Shown here in pieces: positions 1,016 through 40,063 of a DNA stretch of 64,000 nucleotides; within the stretch, counting starts at the first letter, position 1; each line of letters starts with the position of its first letter. The notes under the pieces are model-generated. The model had not been told where the DNA came from, did no database searches, and saw nothing but the letters and a program-made list of their open reading frames with translations. This DNA comes from a virus (lineage: Duplodnaviria; Caudoviricetes), in IMG/VR virus record IMGVR_UViG_3300025706_000022, positions 11,572 to 75,571 of that record. One strand, 5' to 3'. The position numbers were made by a program, and so were the translations under genes.

Positions 1016-1402
1016 TCAGATGAAATTATCTGATTTGATACCCATGTGAGCCAAGCTAATATCTGCATCAATATGTGGTATGATAGCAGTATTCATTTCA
1101 ATAAGCTTACGTAGTTTATCCTTAAGCTTCTCTGTTTCCTTTTGTTTAATACCAATAAAATCACGTTTATTTAAATCCTCAAGTATAGCCTTATACTCCT
1201 TAGTACTGCTCTTAAGTCTAGAAGATAGCTTTTCAAGACCCTCTAATGTTTGAATCTCCTCATTGGATGAAAGATGCATATCATTAATAACCTCTTCTTT
1301 AGTCATACCATACGCATCTGCAATAGCATCTACTTTAAAGTATATCTTACCATCTATTACTCCAGTAAACTTATCTGGCATACCCACTCCTATAGAAAAC
1401 AA
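1016..1402 (-). CDS. Hypothetical protein, possibly DNA-binding, with coiled-coil C-terminus
   Basis: 128-aa ORF overlapping the RNAP stop; fits operon packing. Confidence 0.55.
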   Translation of the reverse strand: MFSIGVGMPDKFTGVIDGKIYFKVDAIADAYGMTKEEVINDMHLSSNEEIQTLEGLEKLSSRLKSSTKEYKAILEDLNKRDFIGIKQKETEKLKDKLRKLIEMNTAIIPHIDADISLAHMGIKSDNFI

Positions 1403-3534
1403 TACTCAGCCTTAGCAACTTCTAGTATGTTGAAATTACCAGTCTTTACTTCCAAATCATCAATACCCAACTGTTTAAGAAGATCACCAAGAGGGTTATT
1501 GTAATACAACATAATGAAACTACTTCTGACGTCTTCATGTAGTTGCTCCATACCACCAGCTAATGTACCAAATGAATCATGTACAGTTACTAGTGGCTCT
1601 TTACAATAATGTGCAGTAAGCATTAGATGTGTTGCATCCATACTATGCACAATATTTGGTGGTGCTCCAGTCTTTTGTTTAGAAGGACTTTCGCGTTTAT
1701 TGTTATTATCTCGAATAGATAATGACAACGTATCATCGTAGTATGGGGCCTTGACCTTAGTTAGTTCACCAATACGATAATCTTGCACTACTGGAAAATT
1801 AACTATAGGGGTATTCCATTCCAAAGATTTACCTACATTACCTTTGCGTTTACCAGCAGTTTCAAATAACTTAAGTAGTGCTACACTGGTAGGCATAGCC
1901 TGTTCCATGGTATCGTACACAATCTGGCCTAACCAAATAGCCCAAGCCCTGTCCATGCCTTCTAAATAATCAATACCATGCTTAGGAGCGTCTTCAATAA
2001 TCTGTTCACCAGCCCCGAAACGGGTTACGCCATAGACCATTGTCATAACCCCTCTCTTAACAAGCTTTCTACGCTCATTAGCTTCTTTTACTTTCTTCCA
2101 ATAAATTGGTGCAGCTTCTTTTATATGAGCTTGATACTTATGCTTAAATTCCTTTACTTCTTCATATAAATCCTTAGTCTCATCCTTATCAGCAGAGTGT
2201 ATAATACCCTTACGTAGCCTACTGACTTCTTTTATTATCTCTTCTAGCTTATCAACATTATCTACCTTCATCTCATTTATACGTTTCCATACAAACTCAG
2301 AGATATACTTATAAAGATCTTGAACAGACTTATTAGCGCAAAGATTAGTATGATAAGCAGTTTCTTCATCTCTAGTTAAAGCTGAGAGATGTTGACTTCC
2401 ATTGTTGCTTCCGTCTACATAGCATATTAACCGAGACACAAACTTCTCTACATCCTCACCGCTAGCACGCCATTGCTGAATGAGAGCTATTTCGATACAG
2501 GCAGCTAGAAATTGCCAGGGAGAATCTGCATCCATCCAACCAGTAAACTCATCTGGGTTATTAGCATAGTTTAAGAATACGCCCATATTATCGTTAGCCC
2601 ACTCTACTCTTTGCTCTAATGATAATTTGTCAGATTTAACACCATAAGTGGTCTTACCTGCCCAAGTTGATGCTAGGGCATGCTTAATCCACTTTTCACC
2701 ATGAACACCAAGCTCCTTACCCTCAGCTAGTAGTAATAGACTCTTAGCTAAGTCAGTACTTTGTTCATTTAGAAAGCCAGTAGCGGGGTAACAACGGCCT
2801 CTAAAATCGAAGAAGTATTGATGATAAAAGACCTTGCTCTGTAGCTCTATACCTAGGTTTATGATAGTCTCAGCAAGTCTTTTCTTTGACTCTCTAGCCA
2901 CAGGGTTAGAAGACTTGTAGTACTCCTTAAACACCTTAGTATTATCCTTAAAATGCTTAAGAGCTACTGATAGAATATTAGTATTGATTACCCATCCTCT
3001 ATTGAATAATTTATGCATCATTTCAATAGCCATAGGCGTACTCGCCTCAGTCAACCTAGCCTTGCTCCTCCTTATTAGCTTCTTAATTGGAATAGGGCAT
3101 GGCGTAAATGTAGGCTTGATTGCTGCTGCTCTAGGCCTTTCATCCCATAGGGATTTAATCTTAGACTCTTCTATATTTACAAAGATACCTTCATTATCTT
3201 CAATAATAACTTCGAATAAACCTACTAAAGAAAAGCACTTTAAGAAGAAACATCCAGTTTTACCTGCTGCATCTGGGAAATTCTCAAAAGAACTACCTGA
3301 CTGCTTTAAAATAGTTTCACCTACAGTAGCAACGATAACATTTACATTTGTATTATCAGCCATTAGATATGTAGCTATCATATCAAATGCTATATCTGTA
3401 AGACGACTGATGCTTACGCCACTCTCTTCATTTAAAAAATCCAGGAGAGGTGATTCAAATTGATCATTAAATGTCTGACTTTCTACTGCTGTATACAGTA
3501 TCTCCCTCTTCACAACAAATTCTCCATTTGACAA
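1390..3534 (-). CDS. Single-subunit T7-family DNA-directed RNA polymerase, compact (714 aa)
   Basis: DFRGR at aa 243-247, motif A YVDGSNNGSQHLSAL, motif B RKLVKRGVMTMVYG (RxxxKx7YG), PNIVHSMDATHL, motif C VHDSFG, C-terminal YCFL. Confidence 0.95.
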   Translation of the reverse strand: MSNGEFVVKREILYTAVESQTFNDQFESPLLDFLNEESGVSISRLTDIAFDMIATYLMADNTNVNVIVATVGETILKQSGSSFENFPDAAGKTGCFFLKCFSLVGLFEVIIEDNEGIFVNIEESKIKSLWDERPRAAAIKPTFTPCPIPIKKLIRRSKARLTEASTPMAIEMMHKLFNRGWVINTNILSVALKHFKDNTKVFKEYYKSSNPVARESKKRLAETIINLGIELQSKVFYHQYFFDFRGRCYPATGFLNEQSTDLAKSLLLLAEGKELGVHGEKWIKHALASTWAGKTTYGVKSDKLSLEQRVEWANDNMGVFLNYANNPDEFTGWMDADSPWQFLAACIEIALIQQWRASGEDVEKFVSRLICYVDGSNNGSQHLSALTRDEETAYHTNLCANKSVQDLYKYISEFVWKRINEMKVDNVDKLEEIIKEVSRLRKGIIHSADKDETKDLYEEVKEFKHKYQAHIKEAAPIYWKKVKEANERRKLVKRGVMTMVYGVTRFGAGEQIIEDAPKHGIDYLEGMDRAWAIWLGQIVYDTMEQAMPTSVALLKLFETAGKRKGNVGKSLEWNTPIVNFPVVQDYRIGELTKVKAPYYDDTLSLSIRDNNNKRESPSKQKTGAPPNIVHSMDATHLMLTAHYCKEPLVTVHDSFGTLAGGMEQLHEDVRSSFIMLYYNNPLGDLLKQLGIDDLEVKTGNFNILEVAKAEYCFL

Positions 3535-6192: not shown

Positions 6193-6277
6193 TGGTGCCC
6201 GTAGTGGGGATCGAACCCACATGACTTTCGTCGCTGCGTTTTAAGCACAGTGCCTATACCAATTCGGCTATACGGGC
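6193..6277 (-). tRNA. tRNA-Leu, anticodon UAA
   Basis: GCCCGTA/TACGGGC acceptor stem, anticodon arm CTGTG-CTTAAAA-CGCAG, long variable arm, GGTTCGATC T-loop, encoded CCA; 85 nt. Confidence 0.95.
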
Positions 6278-33481: not shown

Positions 33482-33790
33482 TTAGCCTATTCCATAGAAG
33501 CCTTTATCATGCTTCCAAAAATCAGGCGGTATATCTTCTAGAATATCCTCAGCTTTGAGAATATCCTGTTCAGTCATAAGTCTTCCACCAACTTTACTTT
33601 TTCCAGCTATTGGAATAATACCTTTTTCAATGGCCTCTTCCAAATACTGATCATAAAGCTCTTTAGGTAATCCACGCTCACGCAGAAGATCTAATGTAGC
33701 CTTTACTGTATTTTTCGTAACAGCATCAGCATACATTTTTCTAATAGCCGTCTTAGCCTTAATCATATCACCAGCATTAGTGAAGAAAGC
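33482..33790 (-). CDS. Exon 3 of MuF-RNAP fusion
   Basis: Begins AFFTNAGDM after intron-terminal G at 33791; completes motif C (IHD|AFF). Confidence 0.85.
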   Translation of the reverse strand, partial: AFFTNAGDMIKAKTAIRKMYADAVTKNTVKATLDLLRERGLPKELYDQYLEEAIEKGIIPIAGKSKVGGRLMTEQDILKAEDILEDIPPDFWKHDKGFYGIG

Positions 33791-34729
33791 CGAAATATTC
33801 AACAAAGGTCGTTAGTCTTTGCCCGTTACTGTCGAGTTAGTTAATAATTCTTCCAAGTATTACCAATTCGTATTTGACGAATGGTAGAAGGGTGCGATCC
33901 AAATTCTACAGCTATTTCTGCATCTAACTTTCCATTTTTGATACATTCTCGTATATAAGGTACATCCTCTGCAGTTATCTTTCTAGTCCTAGGTGCACCA
34001 TTATAACGACCAGGGATAGTCAGACCTAGATGCTTCCAGTTGTCACCAATCCTAATAGCGTTTATAGATTGCCTAGTAACACCGTATTCATCTGCAATCT
34101 CTTGATCTTTTTTGCCAGCAAGCATTAATTTAATTATAGTAGGTATTTCTGACTCTACTAATACCGACTCAACCCTATGTGAACCGCGTGGCATTAACCC
34201 AGTATCGTATGCGTGCTGAACATTTTCACTGCGAGTTGCCCATTCTAGATTAATTACATGGTTATGTAACCTATTCCCATCAATATGATTTACATCTGAT
34301 TTAGAAAAGGGATTTGGTATAAAAGCCTTTGCAACCAACCTATGTAGCTTTTCTGTGCGTCTAACACCATTGTATGATATATGAAACTGCCTATAACCAC
34401 CTACGATATTACCTAATGTGATGCACCCATTAGAGCCACAATATAGTCTACCATGGTTACTAATAGAATAGTTTGCATCACCAACTTGTTTCCATTCTTC
34501 TTGCATGTTTACTCCTTGTGCTCGACAGCACTGCTGCATATTACTATGCAGACTAGACTATATCTTCAAAGTAAATACATGTATTTACGATGTCCCCCGT
34601 TTCCACTCACTTGAGTGTACTGGCGCAATGCCATAGTCGTTACACCTTCCTTATTTCTAAGGATTGGCTCGGTATTGTCCTAACGAAGGAGTTTCACCGA
34701 ATTAGAGGGATTTAACCACAACAAAATTT
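33791..34729 (-). mobile_element. Group I intron 2 (IA2-like, 939 nt) inserted in RNAP motif C
   Basis: P1 CCACGAU/GUUGUGG with U-G at the splice site; P AAUUCGGUGAAA; R AACGACUAU; S AAGAUAUAGUC; P7.1/P7.2 hairpins; terminal G; HNH ORF in the P9 region. Confidence 0.9.
33841..34506 (-). CDS. Intron-encoded NUMOD4-HNH endonuclease (intron 2)
   Basis: KLHRLVAKAFIPNP...VNHIDGNRLHNHVINLEW; two C-terminal HTH-like repeats; start MQEEW with RBS AAGGAG. Confidence 0.9.
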   Translation of the reverse strand: MQEEWKQVGDANYSISNHGRLYCGSNGCITLGNIVGGYRQFHISYNGVRRTEKLHRLVAKAFIPNPFSKSDVNHIDGNRLHNHVINLEWATRSENVQHAYDTGLMPRGSHRVESVLVESEIPTIIKLMLAGKKDQEIADEYGVTRQSINAIRIGDNWKHLGLTIPGRYNGAPRTRKITAEDVPYIRECIKNGKLDAEIAVEFGSHPSTIRQIRIGNTWKNY

Positions 34730-35833
34730 ATCGTGGATACTAGTTGTTTCTATACCATTACGCTTACCCCATAAAGCAAAGTTCTTAACTAGAGTAGCAT
34801 CGTTAGAGTGATTGCCATTGACGGCATATGCCGTTCTAGCAGACACTGCATCAGCTACTTCATTTATTTTATTACTCTTATTAACTAACTCTTCAAACCA
34901 AGTGGGATCAGTTTTATTATCTACTTGAATAATATTAGTGATCCAGTTACCATCAGCATCCTTATAATTAAGCCTTTCCTCAAATCGTTGGGTATAATAT
35001 TGCTCCAACACACTACCATCAAGGTTCACCCAAGGCACATGTGTCCAACTCTTAGGTTGCTTATTGGGTAACCCCAACTCAGCTATATCAATATCTTTGT
35101 AAACATCACCCACCTGAAGCTTAATATCAAACTTCTTACCAGTAGGTCTATAGCCCTTGTCCTTAACCCCAAATAGTATATCAGAGATGGTACTATCGGG
35201 TTTATATCCAGGTATACGTTTAAGGATTTGTTCTCGATAAGATACCTTTGGATCTATTCCTAGTATCCAAGCTAGCACAGGATGAGGCTTAGCCCCTTCT
35301 TTATACTCACCAAATGCGGTTTTCTTCATAAGGCTTACCCAATCAAACTCAGCTTTAGAAGGCTTTGCTGTTAACAGAAAGTCTTGTGCCAGCCTACCGA
35401 AGAACTTAGTAAAATCATTCAAAATAGGTACACGATTAGACATATGCTCAGACATGATTGCACCTATCTGAGCAAAATCTTTGGGCGTAACTACTTCATC
35501 ATAATCCCTAGTAAGCTTCTCTACAAAATCCTTTGTTTTAGGATCAAGGAACCATAAGTCAGACATCAAGTCATCACCTGGCCTAGTTCCACTATCAAAT
35601 ATGTCTTTGACCTGTTTACGAAGCTGCATTAGTTCGTCTGCAGTATCTTGATCCCAACGTGCTATTTTAGCAGCACGGGCAGAGATTTCACCCAATACAG
35701 CATCGCGTTCCTCAGCTTTAATTACTAAGACACCATCATCTTTACCTAAAGCCTTAGCTAATTTCTTTTCTACATTCATGGTAGCAGTTCTCTGTCCGGC
35801 GCCGTATAGAGAGACCATGTTATGCGCTTTTGA
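34730..35833 (-). CDS. Exon 2 of MuF-RNAP fusion
   Basis: Starts SKAHNMVSLYGAG, ends NGNHSNDATLV...SIHD. Confidence 0.88.
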
Positions 35834-36790
35834 CAATGTGTTAACAAGGGGTCGTTAGTCCCCTGTCATAATTTATTAGTAGTTCTTCCAGGTATTTCCT
35901 CTACGAATTTGGTTTATGGTTGCAGTTGCTACACCAAACATAGGTGCAATATCGCAATCACGTAATGTGCCAAATAAGCTTCGAATAACCGGTATATCTT
36001 CTCCAGTTAACTTCTTAACTGGGCCATTACCTATAATCGGCTGTCTTTCAATAAATCGCCAAGTACGGTTACATCGAATATCATCAATTGTATTTGGGGC
36101 CACGTTATACTTTTTGGCAAGAGTAATATTTCTATCACCAGCCTTTAAGGCATCAATAATTTCATGAACTTCTGTTTCTAGAAGGATATGCATATAGCTA
36201 CCTTCTCCAGAAGCAATTAACCCTAATTTTACAGCATGCTCATTATTCTCTGTAGGAGTACACCACTCTAGGTTACTAGACTTATTATTAAGCTTATTAC
36301 CATCAATGTGGTTAGCCCAGGGCTTACCATCTACCCTAGGTATAAAGGCCCTAATAACCAATTTATGAACATCGATAGTTATCCTATCCTTACGAGAGGT
36401 AAACTGTATACTAACTTGTAAGTATCCTCTAGCAGTAATGAAGGGATTAAGAATGAAATCAGTGCTATTGTTGCGAATACGCCCCAGATTGCTGACACTA
36501 TACATGCCTTCTGTGTCTGGGATAATACGAAATTCTTCTGTCATAATGACTCCATGGGTGTGTAAATTATGCTGCATATTACTATGCAGATCAGACTATA
36601 TCTTCAACAAACAATGTTTGCTGTCCCGCGTTTCCACTAGACTTCTAGTGTATGAGATTCATAATCCGTTCTGGACCGTATTCTCTAGTCGTTGAACCTT
36701 CCAAAGAGTCCCCTCTAAGGCTTGGCTGCTGATTGTCCTTTAACGAAGGAGTTTCCAGCAATTAACGGGATTTTACAAGGCCACAAGTTT
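35834..36790 (-). mobile_element. Group I intron 1 (IA2-like, 957 nt) inserted in RNAP motif B
   Basis: P1 AAGGCU/GGCCUU; P AAUUGCUGGAAA; Q AAUCAGCAG; R UUCAACGACUA; S AAGAUAUAGUC; P3 UCCCGU/GCGGGA; terminal G at 35834. Confidence 0.92.
35876..36544 (-). CDS. Intron-encoded NUMOD4-HNH endonuclease (intron 1)
   Basis: DVHKLVIRAFIP...ANHIDGNKLNNKSSNLEW; two C-terminal HTH-like repeats; start MTEEF with RBS GGAG. Confidence 0.9.
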   Translation of the reverse strand: MTEEFRIIPDTEGMYSVSNLGRIRNNSTDFILNPFITARGYLQVSIQFTSRKDRITIDVHKLVIRAFIPRVDGKPWANHIDGNKLNNKSSNLEWCTPTENNEHAVKLGLIASGEGSYMHILLETEVHEIIDALKAGDRNITLAKKYNVAPNTIDDIRCNRTWRFIERQPIIGNGPVKKLTGEDIPVIRSLFGTLRDCDIAPMFGVATATINQIRRGNTWKNY

Positions 36791-39700
36791 AGCCTTCCTT
36801 AAATCCTTCTCGCTTAGCCCCAATCTTTCATTAAGCTTTTTAAACCTAGGATCATTAAAGGTCATAGAAGCAATCTCGTCATAGAGACGCCGCTTCTGGT
36901 TAGTAGGAACAACATTACTAAGTTCTGCTAATTGCTTATTCTTAGTAGACAATGCAATAATCTGAGCACCAGAAGATGAAGCATCTTGCTCTAGAGCTAC
37001 TTTAATCATATAATTATCAAGTGGAGTAAGATCTTTGTAACTGCCACCTAAAAATTTATCAATGCGGTATTGTTCAAGGGCAAGCCTAAATAACTTTCCC
37101 TGTTCTTCAGCATCCGCCATCTGAACGATCTTAGATTCAAGGATATCACGAATATCCTGAGGCTTTTGTCTTTCTATACGTTTACCTAATAAAACAAGAT
37201 CAGCACGCCATTTATCTGCAATCTTCTGCCTACCAGTTTGAGAGAGACCATTAAAGCGTCCTTCAAACTCATCACTTAGGCCACCTAAGAAACCACCTAT
37301 CTGGTCTTGTAGGTTATAATATCCATCAATACCTAAGGGTTTAGCTTCTGGTGTATTTAAGAAAGGACGAAAGGACTCACCAGATTGTGGTCCAATGTAG
37401 CCGCTATCATATATGCGACCGCGATGATCAATGAAAGCGTGATTACTAAAAGACATATCGTTCTTAACATAATGTTCCATAGCCTTAAATCTATCGTATG
37501 CATCACCACGAGCAGTCATGTGATCACGATAATGATTCAAATCATTAAAATACTTAGCCTTACCCTTATCGTCTTGGAAATCCAATAACTTTCTCGTAAA
37601 CCCATAAAACTCAGGATCTACTTTATACTTACTATTGCTATACCAATTAAGGGCATCTGCTAATGGTTCGTCAATTAGCTCTGCAGGTATTTCAGTGAAA
37701 CTACTTGAAGATGTAATTGGTATTTGTGTATCATATCCGCCCTTAGCAAAATATGTTTTGAACCCAGGTTTAATATATAGTTGGTTATCATATCTATTAT
37801 TCACACCAATACGATAGCCTACATCGATAGCACGATTAAGGTATGAGTAGTGCTTAATACGAGCATCGGTAATCCTAAGATTTACACTAAATGTATCGTA
37901 GTATTGACCAAAGTATTGACCACTCATACGACTACGCATACGCCTTTTCTTAACACCAAAAGTATCTAGTGTATAAAATCCTACTTTTTGAGCATAATCT
38001 AAGATTTCTACACCTGCATCATACCATTCTTTTTTAGATCCACGAAAATTAGTAGTATTAAATAGATCTCTTCCTAATTCAATGGCTAGTTGATCCCTAT
38101 CAGGGGCATCATCCATTGCTAACCGTTTAGCAAACCTCAAATAGAACTGCTGAGTTTCAAACTTACCTAATCCCTGAAATACTCTACGCATTTGAAGTTT
38201 CATAGGTAATTGTGTTTTTAAGAAGATATCTACTGTAGAACGTAACTGTAGTGCTATAACGGGTAATTGTCTAGCTTCCCATAGATTACGCTCTTTAATA
38301 TTAGCAATAAAATTCTTGCCCAAATCATCTAATTGTATAGGGCCAAGAACAGGATCAAGATACTCACCTTGCTTAATCTTGTAGAAGAAGTCAGAATTAT
38401 TTCTTAACTGTGTCTCAATAAACTCTGACACGTTAGTAACACTATTCTTCATTTCTGAGTTAAGAACAGCCTTAAGATTACCCCAAGGCTTTCCTTGTTT
38501 ACGAAAACGCTCAAATGTTACACGAAGATTATCAGTGACAACTGCAGCCTCATTCATGCCTACAGACTTCTGTATTTCTATCTTGAAATCTTGTAGGAAC
38601 TTCTTATCATCTGCGGTTAATACTGTGCTTTCATCAATAAGCCTAACAGCGCGTTTATCAGCAGCCATATTAGGTTGATAGATGCGGGCATCCTCTCTAC
38701 GCTTAGTAATAGGATTATATATTAGCTGATCTTCAGTTGGAGGGCTGTTTAGAACCCTATTCTTAGTACCAGCCTTTACATGAGGTAGAATACCACGATA
38801 GTTAGTAACACTTAAAGTACCATTTAGCTCACCAGACTGTAGTTTATAATACTCTACGAGTTTGCTAACGGCCTCTTTATCTCTAAGTATTTCAAGAGGG
38901 GATGTATATCCCAGTGTAAGTGTGTCCAGTCTTTCTTTTGCATTCGCGAATACTTTACTAGTAGCTTCTACGCTACCGTTATAACCACCTGCTGTATTAT
39001 TATCACCAGTTAGTAGCTTAAGCTCATTGAGACCTACACTAGCACCCTTAGGTGTTATAAACCTCTCAGCTGTAAGCTCATTATTTTGGAACATCTTAAG
39101 GCGATGCATATCTCCTAGATGCATTAGCTGAATTCTATCTGGTTGTTTCTTTAACCAATCATTATAAGAAATAGTGTCATAAGGTGTTCCAGTAAAATAA
39201 CTAGAGGCATACTTATCATAGGCTTCAATCTCTGCTTCCGACATTCCAGCTGTATTACGGGCTCTAGTGGCTCTTACAGAATCAACTTTTGCTAAGTCTG
39301 CCCAAGCCTTAGGAACAGGTATTGTAGTAGACCTACACCTATAATGTTGTGGTGGTAAATGACCAGTATCAGAAACTGGATAGATATTTCCATCCATATA
39401 TCTGCATACTGGAGTAGTTCTAGTGTCTAATACCGCGGCGTATTGGTATCCTTTCAAGTATTTGCTATTCTCTGCATATACTTGCTGGTCTACTTGTGCA
39501 TACACACTAGTAATCCCGGTAATAACAATACCTTCACTATGTACACGAGTAAGATTAAACGTTTTAGATACACGTTTAATCATTTGTTCTTCAGTTAAGC
39601 CTTCAGCTAGGCCGCCTCTAATAGCAGCCTCTATACGCTTACGCTCATTTAAGCCAATGCCTTTCCAACCTTCTGCAAGAGTCTTATTAGCATAGAGAGG

Positions 39701-40063
39701 TTGTGTTAATACTATCTCGCTAGCAATAGCACGAGTAGGTCTCTCAGGCTCAAAGAAATCTCTGAATGACTTATTGAGAGTATCTAAAGAACTTACTTGT
39801 GCTTGATTACCAAACTCAATAAAACTTTTTGCATTATGGCGATACGCTGTTTCTGTAAATCGCCTTATCTCTGCATCTGTTGCAGGGCTGATCGGCATTT
39901 CTTTTGAATAGTTTCCAGGGAGTATTGCGAGCATTCTAGTTTCATGGTCATCAACTAATGCTAATGTTTGTGCGGTAACTCGCTCTGTATAAAGTCGAGT
40001 CATAGCAGCATCATGTATGGTTTTATCACCAGCAACCTCGACCGCTGTCTTTTCTACTTTCAT
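36791..40063 (-). CDS. Exon 1 of MuF (SPP1 gp7-like) minor head protein fused to a T7-family RNA polymerase
   Basis: MuF core YQYAAVLDTRTTPVCRYMDG...PPQHYRCRST and WLKKQP...LG extension; then DHRGRIY, motif A LEQDASSSGAQII, and RKA start of motif B. Confidence 0.9.

Follow-up and report, generated by a model that had tools for sequence, protein, structure and literature searches.

Two related group I introns with HNH endonuclease genes in a Mu-F-fused RNA polymerase gene of an uncultivated siphophage

Five open reading frames (ORFs) follow one another on the minus strand in a 64-kb stretch of DNA from an uncultivated siphophage: a long ORF from position 40063, an ORF for an HNH endonuclease, an ORF of 374 amino acids (aa), a second HNH ORF, and an ORF of 107 aa. 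The stretch, which we call the window, is part of the 75.6-kb IMG/VR virus record IMGVR_UViG_3300025706_000022, rated 100% complete. Are these five genes, or one gene with something inserted in it? We found a single minus-strand gene (40063..33482) that is split in three by two introns and whose spliced product would have 1561 aa. We consider it very likely that this gene, for a virion protein that joins a Mu-F domain to an RNA polymerase (RNAP), was invaded by two paralogous mobile group I introns of the IA type, each with an HNH gene.

Taking out the two introns restores one open frame across the three exons (Table 1). The junctions then read ...AAGGCT/TCAAAA... and ...CACGAT/GCTTTC... (the slash marks the join). 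These junctions and the limits of both introns had been proposed in an initial annotation of this DNA. Read on the minus strand, the limits proved exact, and the restored product aligns without gaps to intron-less homologues. One of these is an uninterrupted protein of 1463 aa from the roseophage DSS3_VP1 (Naomviridae). Its BLASTP alignment with the spliced product runs gapless through both junctions, with EKDLRKASKAHNMVSLYGAG opposite WEDLAKGAKAANMVTFYGAG at the first and TTSIHDAFFTN opposite TGTIHDAFFTN at the second. In the IMG/VR contigs L005, L009, L010, and L011, the matches to exons 1, 2, and 3 abut to the base. The window exons are open frames that are 50-72% identical to those of relatives, and the unspliced RNA has a stop five codons into intron 1. 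The 6.7-kb region had no match by megablast against phage records; relatives were found at the protein level only.

Both introns are group I introns. Intron 1 matched the Rfam model RF00028 (36842-36572, minus strand) with 99.7 bits (E 1.3e-24) and intron 2 (34797-34534, minus strand) with 89.2 bits (E 1.9e-21), compared to a gathering score of 50 bits. There were no further matches to RF00028 in the 75.6-kb virus record. Each intron is preceded by U and ends in G, and a terminal G was also present in the nine related introns whose exact ends were extracted. In P1 of intron 1, the exon sequence AAGGCU pairs with GGCCUU in the intron, and in P1 of intron 2, CCACGAU pairs with GUUGUGG. Both helices place a U·G pair at the splice site. 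There is no P2 between P1 and P3, and P7.1 and P7.2 are present, as in phage IA introns. The two introns have in common AAACUCCUUCGUUA, a block spanning J8/7, P7, and P9, and the loop GACUAACGAC. Aligned with each other, they are clearly related. Group I identity, the U-G pair, the terminal G, P7.1/P7.2, and the kinship of the two introns, including the shared strings, had all been read from the letters in the initial annotation, and the Rfam search and the alignments agree with that reading.

The predicted helices are maintained by covariation. We aligned the cores of 11 related introns and scored 54 pairs in P1, P3, P4, P5, P6/P6a, P7, P7.1, and P9. Of the cells scored, 97.7% were paired, compared to 36-39% when partners were slid. 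P3, P4, P5, P6, P7, and P9 were 97-100% paired. Compensatory changes were found in 36 of the 54 pairs, including all four pairs of P7.1, and the covariation score was 0.627, compared to 0.06-0.11 in controls. For four of five measures, none of the shuffles reached the observed value; the fifth (further pair types) was reached by 5 of 500. The U·G pair at the splice site was present in 11 of 11 introns. P1 covaries with the exon: CCACGAU/GUUGUGG at the second insertion site of the window becomes UCACGAU/GUCGUGA at the same site in another contig (L035, described below).

The 3' parts of the introns are also structured. A stem that we call P9.1 closes the loop that contains the endonuclease ORF in six introns. 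It is 9 to 14 bp long in each, with unrelated sequences. It is followed by a conserved hairpin, P9.2, with the loop nUARCGA, located 10 nucleotides (nt) before the terminal G. In both window introns, 6-7 bp could form between the L5 loop (UCGUUA) and the P9.2 loop (UAACGA). The two loops may form a kissing interaction over this long distance and so hold the far 3' splice site near the core. The complementarity is not conserved in relatives: the loop motif nUARCGA is kept and the complementary L5 is not. We also considered pairing of the P9.2 loop with the sequence just after P9 and dropped it, as the longer P9.1 helices explain the matches better. The P9 hairpin is identical in the two window introns. 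Because the same hairpin occurs in an intron from another contig (L079), we make no claim of concerted evolution between the two.

The interrupted gene encodes an RNA polymerase. At the start of exon 1 there is a Phage_Mu_F domain (PF04233, 50.9 bits). When the window's exons were searched separately, this was the only Pfam match; there was no match to an RNAP domain (PF00940), because that domain is split. Intron-less homologues matched PF00940 with 45.3 bits (L005) and 27.1 bits (DSS3_VP1), above the cut-off of 22 bits. A profile of the family matched T7 RNAP in the PDB (E 6e-6). In this alignment DHRGRIY falls at the T/DxxGR motif (R423/R425 of T7), QDASSSG at motif A (D537), and IHDAFF opposite IHDSFG(T), which is motif C (H811/D812). 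An AlphaFold (AF2) model of the polymerase part of an intron-less homologue had a mean predicted local distance difference test (pLDDT) of 79.6 and a predicted template-modelling score (pTM) of 0.75. In a Foldseek search of the PDB, every one of the best matches listed was to a T7 or a mitochondrial RNAP (E 4e-12 to 1e-8, TM 0.40-0.50). Judged from these profiles and the model, the host protein is a T7-like single-subunit RNAP with an N-terminal Mu-F domain.

Both introns lie in catalytic motifs of this enzyme. Intron 2 is inserted directly after the Asp of motif C (IHD/AFF; equivalent to Asp812 of T7), in a turn between two strands. Intron 1 is inserted in motif B (RKA/SK), inside a helix of the model. 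Our assignment of motif B (RKASKAHNMVSLYG) is based on the pattern R-x3-K-x7-YG, on the envelope of the Pfam match, and on the helix seen in the model, and not on a residue-level alignment to T7. A phmmer search of the PDB with one homologue gave nothing useful for placing motif B, and hhalign of the family profile against the second RNAP of this phage (see below) aligned only the part from T/DxxGR to motif A, with 73% probability. These positions are the ones given in the initial annotation. It had also concluded that enzyme activity would require both splicing events, and this follows from the distribution of motifs A, B, and C over three different exons.

The gene is located in the structural module, with a portal-like gene on one side and scaffold and major-capsid genes on the other. 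There is also a second gene for a T7-like RNAP in the window (1390-3534, minus strand), of 714 aa, with 258 bits to PF00940 and no introns. In addition to the Mu-F-fused RNAP there is thus a canonical one, and the phage therefore has two single-subunit RNAPs.

Each intron carries a full-length HNH ORF without internal stops. The likely start of each is 27 nt past the last base of the P9 hairpin and 33 nt past the ATG inside it; the initial annotation had put both starts 33 nt past the hairpin. HNH1 has the domains NUMOD4 (PF07463, 34.8 bits) and HNH_3 (PF13392, a His-Me finger catalytic domain; 28.4 bits) and two helix-turn-helix (HTH)-like repeats. HNH2 matched PF13392 with 31.5 bits (cut-off 24.8 bits), and its HTH matches were below the curated cut-offs. 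The two proteins are 39% identical to each other (E 2e-45). HNH1 matched I-HmuI (1U3E; E 4.5e-8), with alignment of the residues NHIDGN...NLEW...TEN. With the HNH protein from the intron at the corresponding position in L035 it shares 66% identity. For HNH2, there are nine other proteins in the database that are comparable in length and 51-62% identical. We examined the context of two of them (P0004 and P0005). Both are encoded in introns that interrupt genes of this polymerase family 7 nt upstream of the intron 2 position, where the insertion splits the Ile/Val codon that precedes His-Asp. By sequence, the HNH genes are intact genes for I-HmuI-like endonucleases, one per intron.

The introns are distributed patchily among relatives of the gene. 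At least 578 relatives are present in IMG/VR, and we examined the best 80 of these. Most of the 80 had no introns where the contigs covered the sites; we counted 73 intron-less copies for the motif B site of the window (site B1) and 75 for the motif C site (site C). The intron-less alleles keep 15-18 of the 20 nt around both window sites. One relative, L035 (on the same contig as L013 and found by a search with the HNH1 protein), has introns at exactly the same two sites, B1 and C. In a tree from a quick maximum-likelihood search with IQ-TREE, the window groups with L014, which has an intron at a different site in motif B (B2), and with L005, L016, L017, and L025, which have no introns at the mapped sites where covered. 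L035 is in another well-supported clade together with L037. That is, two alleles from different clades share both sites, and the nearest relatives of the window lack these introns or have another one. This is a signature of mobility.

Several intron-bearing alleles have near-identical intron-less sisters on the tree. For example, L011 (no intron) and L012 (an intron in motif B) are 95.6% identical in DNA. In L012, synonymous differences are clustered in the first ~20 exon bases beside the intron, which looks like a co-conversion tract.

There are at least eight insertion sites in the polymerase domain, with introns confirmed by Rfam or by clear junctions (Table 1). Three of the eight are within seven codons of motif B. 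In L093 (L093:1-4035, in a 91.9-kb Joint Genome Institute contig), a single gene contains four or more group I introns (at sites T, B1.5, H, and C'), with three ribozyme cores of 72-89 bits within 2 kb. In EBPR siphovirus 1 (JF412302), a group I intron (L001:7698-8548; 40.5 bits, below the Rfam threshold) is in the Val codon of NMV in motif B, and the genes deposited as gp47 ("head protein"), gp48 ("HNH endonuclease"), and gp49 ("hypothetical") together form one Mu-F-RNAP gene.

Ribozyme cores and endonucleases do not sort together. The core of intron 1 of the window is 72% identical to the L035 core at site C and 63.5% identical to the L035 core at site B1. The B2 introns of the EBPR type (L032, L058, and L092) and the L079 intron have a different endonuclease (PF01844 with NUMOD1). 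Other introns have lost coding capacity: the L070 intron (L070:1011-1966) has only an ORF for a 117-aa C-terminal HNH remnant, and the motif B intron of L037 (L037:4226-4500) is 275 nt long and has no ORF. These two are decay stages of the same intron family.

Some insertions in these genes are not introns. In many relatives, a domain of 108-217 aa is inserted in frame ~15 residues before motif A. We considered the insertions at this position (324-677 nt; "site A") as introns and rejected them, as all those examined except the one in L016 are in-frame domains and none matched Rfam. The L092 insert is a GNAT acetyltransferase (PF00583/PF08445); the others had no convincing Pfam match. The insertion in L016 (L016:3572-4248; same contig as L007), at the same position before motif A, is 677 nt long, is out of frame, and has many stops. 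Possible explanations are a domain insert with a frameshift, an error in the assembly, or some other element.

Table 1. Positions of the exons, introns, ribozyme elements, and endonuclease genes in the window, followed by insertion sites and inserts mapped in related genes.
Feature	Position	Strand	Details
Spliced coding sequence	40063..36791 + 35833..34730 + 33790..33482	-	one open frame, 1561 aa
Exon 1	36791..40063	-	1091 codons; Mu-F head-morphogenesis domain, long linker, N-terminal part of RNAP; T/DxxGR, motif A (LEQDASSSGAQ), first half of motif B (..DLRKA)
Exon 2	34730..35833	-	368 codons; second half of motif B (SKAHNMVSLYGAG), fingers/thumb region; NGNHSND motif, first half of motif C (..TTSIHD)
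Exon 3	33482..33790	-	102 codons and stop; second half of motif C (AFFTNAGD), C-terminal end (..FYGIG)
Intron 1	35834..36790	-	957 nt; group I, subgroup IA-like; site B1
Intron 1 ribozyme core	36572..36796	-	from Rfam alignment, RNAalifold, and pair counts
Intron 1 P1	36796-36791/36782-36777	-	
Intron 1 P3	36770-36765/36629-36624	-	
Intron 1 P4	36761-36755/36732-36726	-	
Intron 1 P5	36750-36747/36739-36736	-	
Intron 1 P6/P6a		-	present
Intron 1 P7	36690-36686/36598-36594	-	
Intron 1 P7.1	36685-36654	-	
Intron 1 P7.2	36650-36635	-	
Intron 1 P8	36623-36605	-	
Intron 1 P9	36589-36572	-	GUAA loop
Intron 1 P9.1, 3' strand	35875-35867	-	pairs with 36571-36563 and closes ORF loop; 9-bp perfect helix
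Intron 1 P9.2 hairpin	35866-35844	-	loop ACUAACGAC; 10 nt before terminal G (35834)
HNH1 ORF	35876..36544	-	222 aa from ATG at 36544; GGAG 6 nt upstream; stop 35878-35876
Intron 2	33791..34729	-	939 nt; group I; site C
Intron 2 ribozyme core	34534..34736	-	from Rfam alignment, RNAalifold, and pair counts
Intron 2 P1	34736-34730/34722-34716	-	
Intron 2 P3	34710-34705/34598-34593	-	
Intron 2 P4	34701-34695/34674-34668	-	
Intron 2 P5	34690-34687/34681-34678	-	
Intron 2 P7	34638-34634/34560-34556	-	
Intron 2 P7.2	34617-34604	-	
Intron 2 P8	34589-34567	-	
Intron 2 P9	34551-34534	-	
Intron 2 P9.1, 3' strand	33836-33827	-	pairs with 34530-34521; 10-bp helix, one G·U
Intron 2 P9.2 hairpin	33823-33801	-	loop ACUAACGAC; 10 nt before terminal G (33791)
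HNH2 ORF	33841..34506	-	221 aa from ATG at 34506; GGAG upstream; stop 33843-33841
L5/P9.2 loop complementarity, intron 1	36747-36741/35859-35854	-	possible contact
L5/P9.2 loop complementarity, intron 2	34687-34681/33816-33811	-	possible contact
Site T			ESF^RPFLN; carrier L093
Site A2			after ..RRL; carrier L070
Site B1			between RKA and SK; carriers window, L035
Site B1.5			between (S/A)KA and QN; carriers L037, L079, L051, L093
Site B2			inside Val codon of NMV; carriers EBPR siphovirus 1, L032, L058, L087, L092, L012, L014
Site H			between NGNHS and ND; carrier L093
Site C'			7 nt upstream of site C; carriers L093, L096
Site C			between IHD and AFF; carriers window, L035, L037
In-frame insert before motif A	L092:256-663		
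In-frame insert before motif A	L048:3946-4269		
In-frame insert before motif A	L065:3835-4248		
In-frame insert before motif A	L070:211-861		

Elsewhere in the window there is a tRNA gene (6196-6277, minus strand; 58.3 bits) whose variable region has 10 extra nt inserted compared to the Rfam model.

How would these introns work and spread? In the pre-mRNA, each intron would fold into a ribozyme with helices P1 to P9 and bind guanosine. It would cut 3' of the U in the U·G pair (following ..AAGGCU and ..CACGAU), and the exons would be ligated after the terminal G. This would bring RKA next to SK within the helix of motif B, and IHD next to AFF within the turn of motif C. A single chain with all three motifs (A, B, and C) would be translated only from mRNA that had lost both introns. 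The HNH gene, with its own Shine-Dalgarno sequence, occupies the terminal loop of the P9.1 stem, between P9 and P9.2. As proposed in the initial annotation, it is plausible that the HNH enzymes cut intron-less alleles of related phages: such alleles exist, with similar sequence around both sites, and the introns are patchily distributed. By analogy to I-HmuI, the enzymes would nick the cognate polymerase allele of a co-infecting relative, and the intron, with exon sequence next to it, would be copied into this allele during repair of the nick. Such homing is likely the means by which these introns spread.

Several points weigh against two mobile, splicing introns. We infer the splicing of both introns from their sequence, and P10 is weak in both (~3 bp in intron 1, counted by eye). 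HNH2 has no significant match to NUMOD4 in Pfam, yet it aligns to HNH1 from residue 1. In both HNH proteins, the Asp that precedes the catalytic His of I-HmuI is Asn. In the Bastillevirinae, eight of nine tested intron-bearing genes were spliced, four of those only in infected cells (PMC11878797), and predicted introns of phiKZ gave no splicing in long-read transcriptomes (PMC10914365). The phiKZ case lends some support to the notion that the window introns are decayed, splicing-dead relics, and that the polymerase is a pseudogene or is put together from three separate polypeptides, as with genes split by endonucleases in some T4-like phages. Also in favour of this reading, TTG codons lie in frame a short way before exon 2 (35836) and exon 3 (33805). 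However, we saw no Shine-Dalgarno sequence before either TTG, and in the model the protein would be interrupted within a helix and within a beta turn of the catalytic palm and fingers, so separate chains would be unlikely to work. The ribozyme cores score 40-50 bits above the Rfam threshold, all helices have been kept by compensatory changes across homologous introns, and the exons are open and conserved in a record rated complete. We regard splicing-dead relics as highly improbable.

It is also possible that the introns splice and that the HNH enzymes are no longer active, so that the introns are harmless passengers, inherited vertically, with no role in spread or competition. The decay of endonucleases in relatives (the remnant ORF in L070 and the ORF-less intron of L037) would fit, as would the Asn at the metal site of I-HmuI. 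In contrast, both window ORFs are full length and each has a GGAG and an ATG of its own, both proteins look conserved relative to their homologues, the introns are patchy, and near-identical alleles occur with and without an intron. We think that passengers of this kind are quite unlikely. A different view is that the intron family moved between sites mainly by guide-directed reverse splicing rather than endonuclease homing. The hexamer AAGGCU precedes the intron at three sites, A2 (L070 and the identical L074), B1 (the window and L035), and B1.5 (L037 and L079), and at these it is paired to GGCCUU or GGGUCUU. The lack of sorting of ribozyme cores by site and the different endonuclease families among introns with similar cores fit this view as well. 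However, AAGGCU is fairly common through K-A and R-L codons (at B1, it is present in 12 of 73 intron-less alleles), and a functional intron has to match its exon, so that selection after insertion would produce this pattern too. At B1, the window and L035 share a site-specific HNH lineage, which agrees with classical homing. Movement mainly by reverse splicing thus seems unlikely to us, even though the shared hexamer and guide at A2, B1, and B1.5 hint that guide complementarity helped choose new sites. Invasion by two mobile introns that probably spread by homing fits the data best.

A broader proposal is that the Mu-F-fused RNAP genes, with at least 578 relatives, are a hotspot for one radiating intron family, with at least eight sites, up to four or more introns per gene, swapping of cores and endonuclease cassettes, and re-use of one guide at the three AAGGCU sites. 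We offer this only tentatively and think it rather doubtful as a whole. If guide-directed reverse splicing and endonuclease shuffling do occur, and if the nucleases are used against co-infecting relatives, the family would be a natural system for studying site choice and the arming of phages.

Our results indicate that both introns are ordinary mobile group I introns of phages and that it is the gene around them that is unusual. The gene is now annotated as three or five separate ORFs, and domain searches on the split pieces miss the RNAP because of the introns. The uninterrupted gene of DSS3_VP1 is labelled "head morphogenesis," and the paper that describes that phage never mentions an RNA polymerase (PMC8323127). 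Recognizing the introns reveals that these phages probably encode a complete, capsid-targeted T7-like RNAP. The gene family has natural alleles with zero, one, two, and four or more introns at eight mapped sites. These are good material for studying site choice, the modularity of endonucleases and ribozymes, and co-conversion. If the HNH enzymes cut intron-less alleles, their target would be an enzyme that a competitor must package into its virions, as for PhiPA3 against PhiKZ. Related phages with intron-less sites of similar sequence do exist, and a role in phage competition like that of PhiPA3 gp210 is possible by analogy.

The literature that we searched contained no description of an intron within a phage gene for a single-subunit RNAP. 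The closest known kind is that of the DNA polymerase introns of SPO1 and SP82 (with I-HmuI and I-HmuII) and of the Bastillevirinae, in which DNA polymerase genes have two or three IA introns with NUMOD4-HNH enzymes (PMC11878797). As in these Bacillus phages, the window has IA-type ribozymes, a NUMOD4-HNH gene that is looped out, and several introns in conserved catalytic regions of one polymerase gene. HNH1 is ~35% identical to Bacillus-phage HNH proteins, and the window cores have 75-77% identity over ~100 nt to Bastille-type DNA polymerase introns. In contrast, the host gene here is for a Mu-F-fused single-subunit RNAP of an uncultivated siphophage, known from sequence alone, and not for a family A or B DNA polymerase of a Bacillus myophage. 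PhiPA3 gp210 is likewise an HNH endonuclease encoded in an intron of a virion RNAP gene, and it targets the homologous gene of a co-infecting phage (PMC11620839; Birkholz et al. 2024). The RNAPs of PhiPA3 and PhiKZ are multisubunit enzymes of jumbo phages, the window gene has two endonuclease-bearing introns, and the competitive effect that was measured there is only a possibility here. Cyanophage Pf-WMP3, which has a T7-type set of enzymes, has a group IA2 intron with a nicking HNH enzyme (I-PfoP3I) in a polymerase gene (PMC3428280). It differs in that the intron is single and is in the DNA polymerase gene rather than an RNA polymerase gene.

The cores of the window introns resemble introns of T4-like, Bacillus, and Vibrio phages, and core similarity was found in 200 Escherichia-phage records. 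The T4 introns in td, nrdB, and nrdD (sunY) are of the same ribozyme class, with P7.1 and P7.2. They differ from those in the window in that they have GIY-YIG or other endonucleases, are in genes of nucleotide metabolism, and occur once per gene. The ORF in the nrdD intron is likewise looped out of a peripheral 3' stem. Finally, orf142 of Staphylococcus phage Twort has three related group I introns in one gene, which are short and are not known to carry endonuclease genes. The likeness to the window is that a single phage gene contains several paralogous group I introns; the difference is the host gene.

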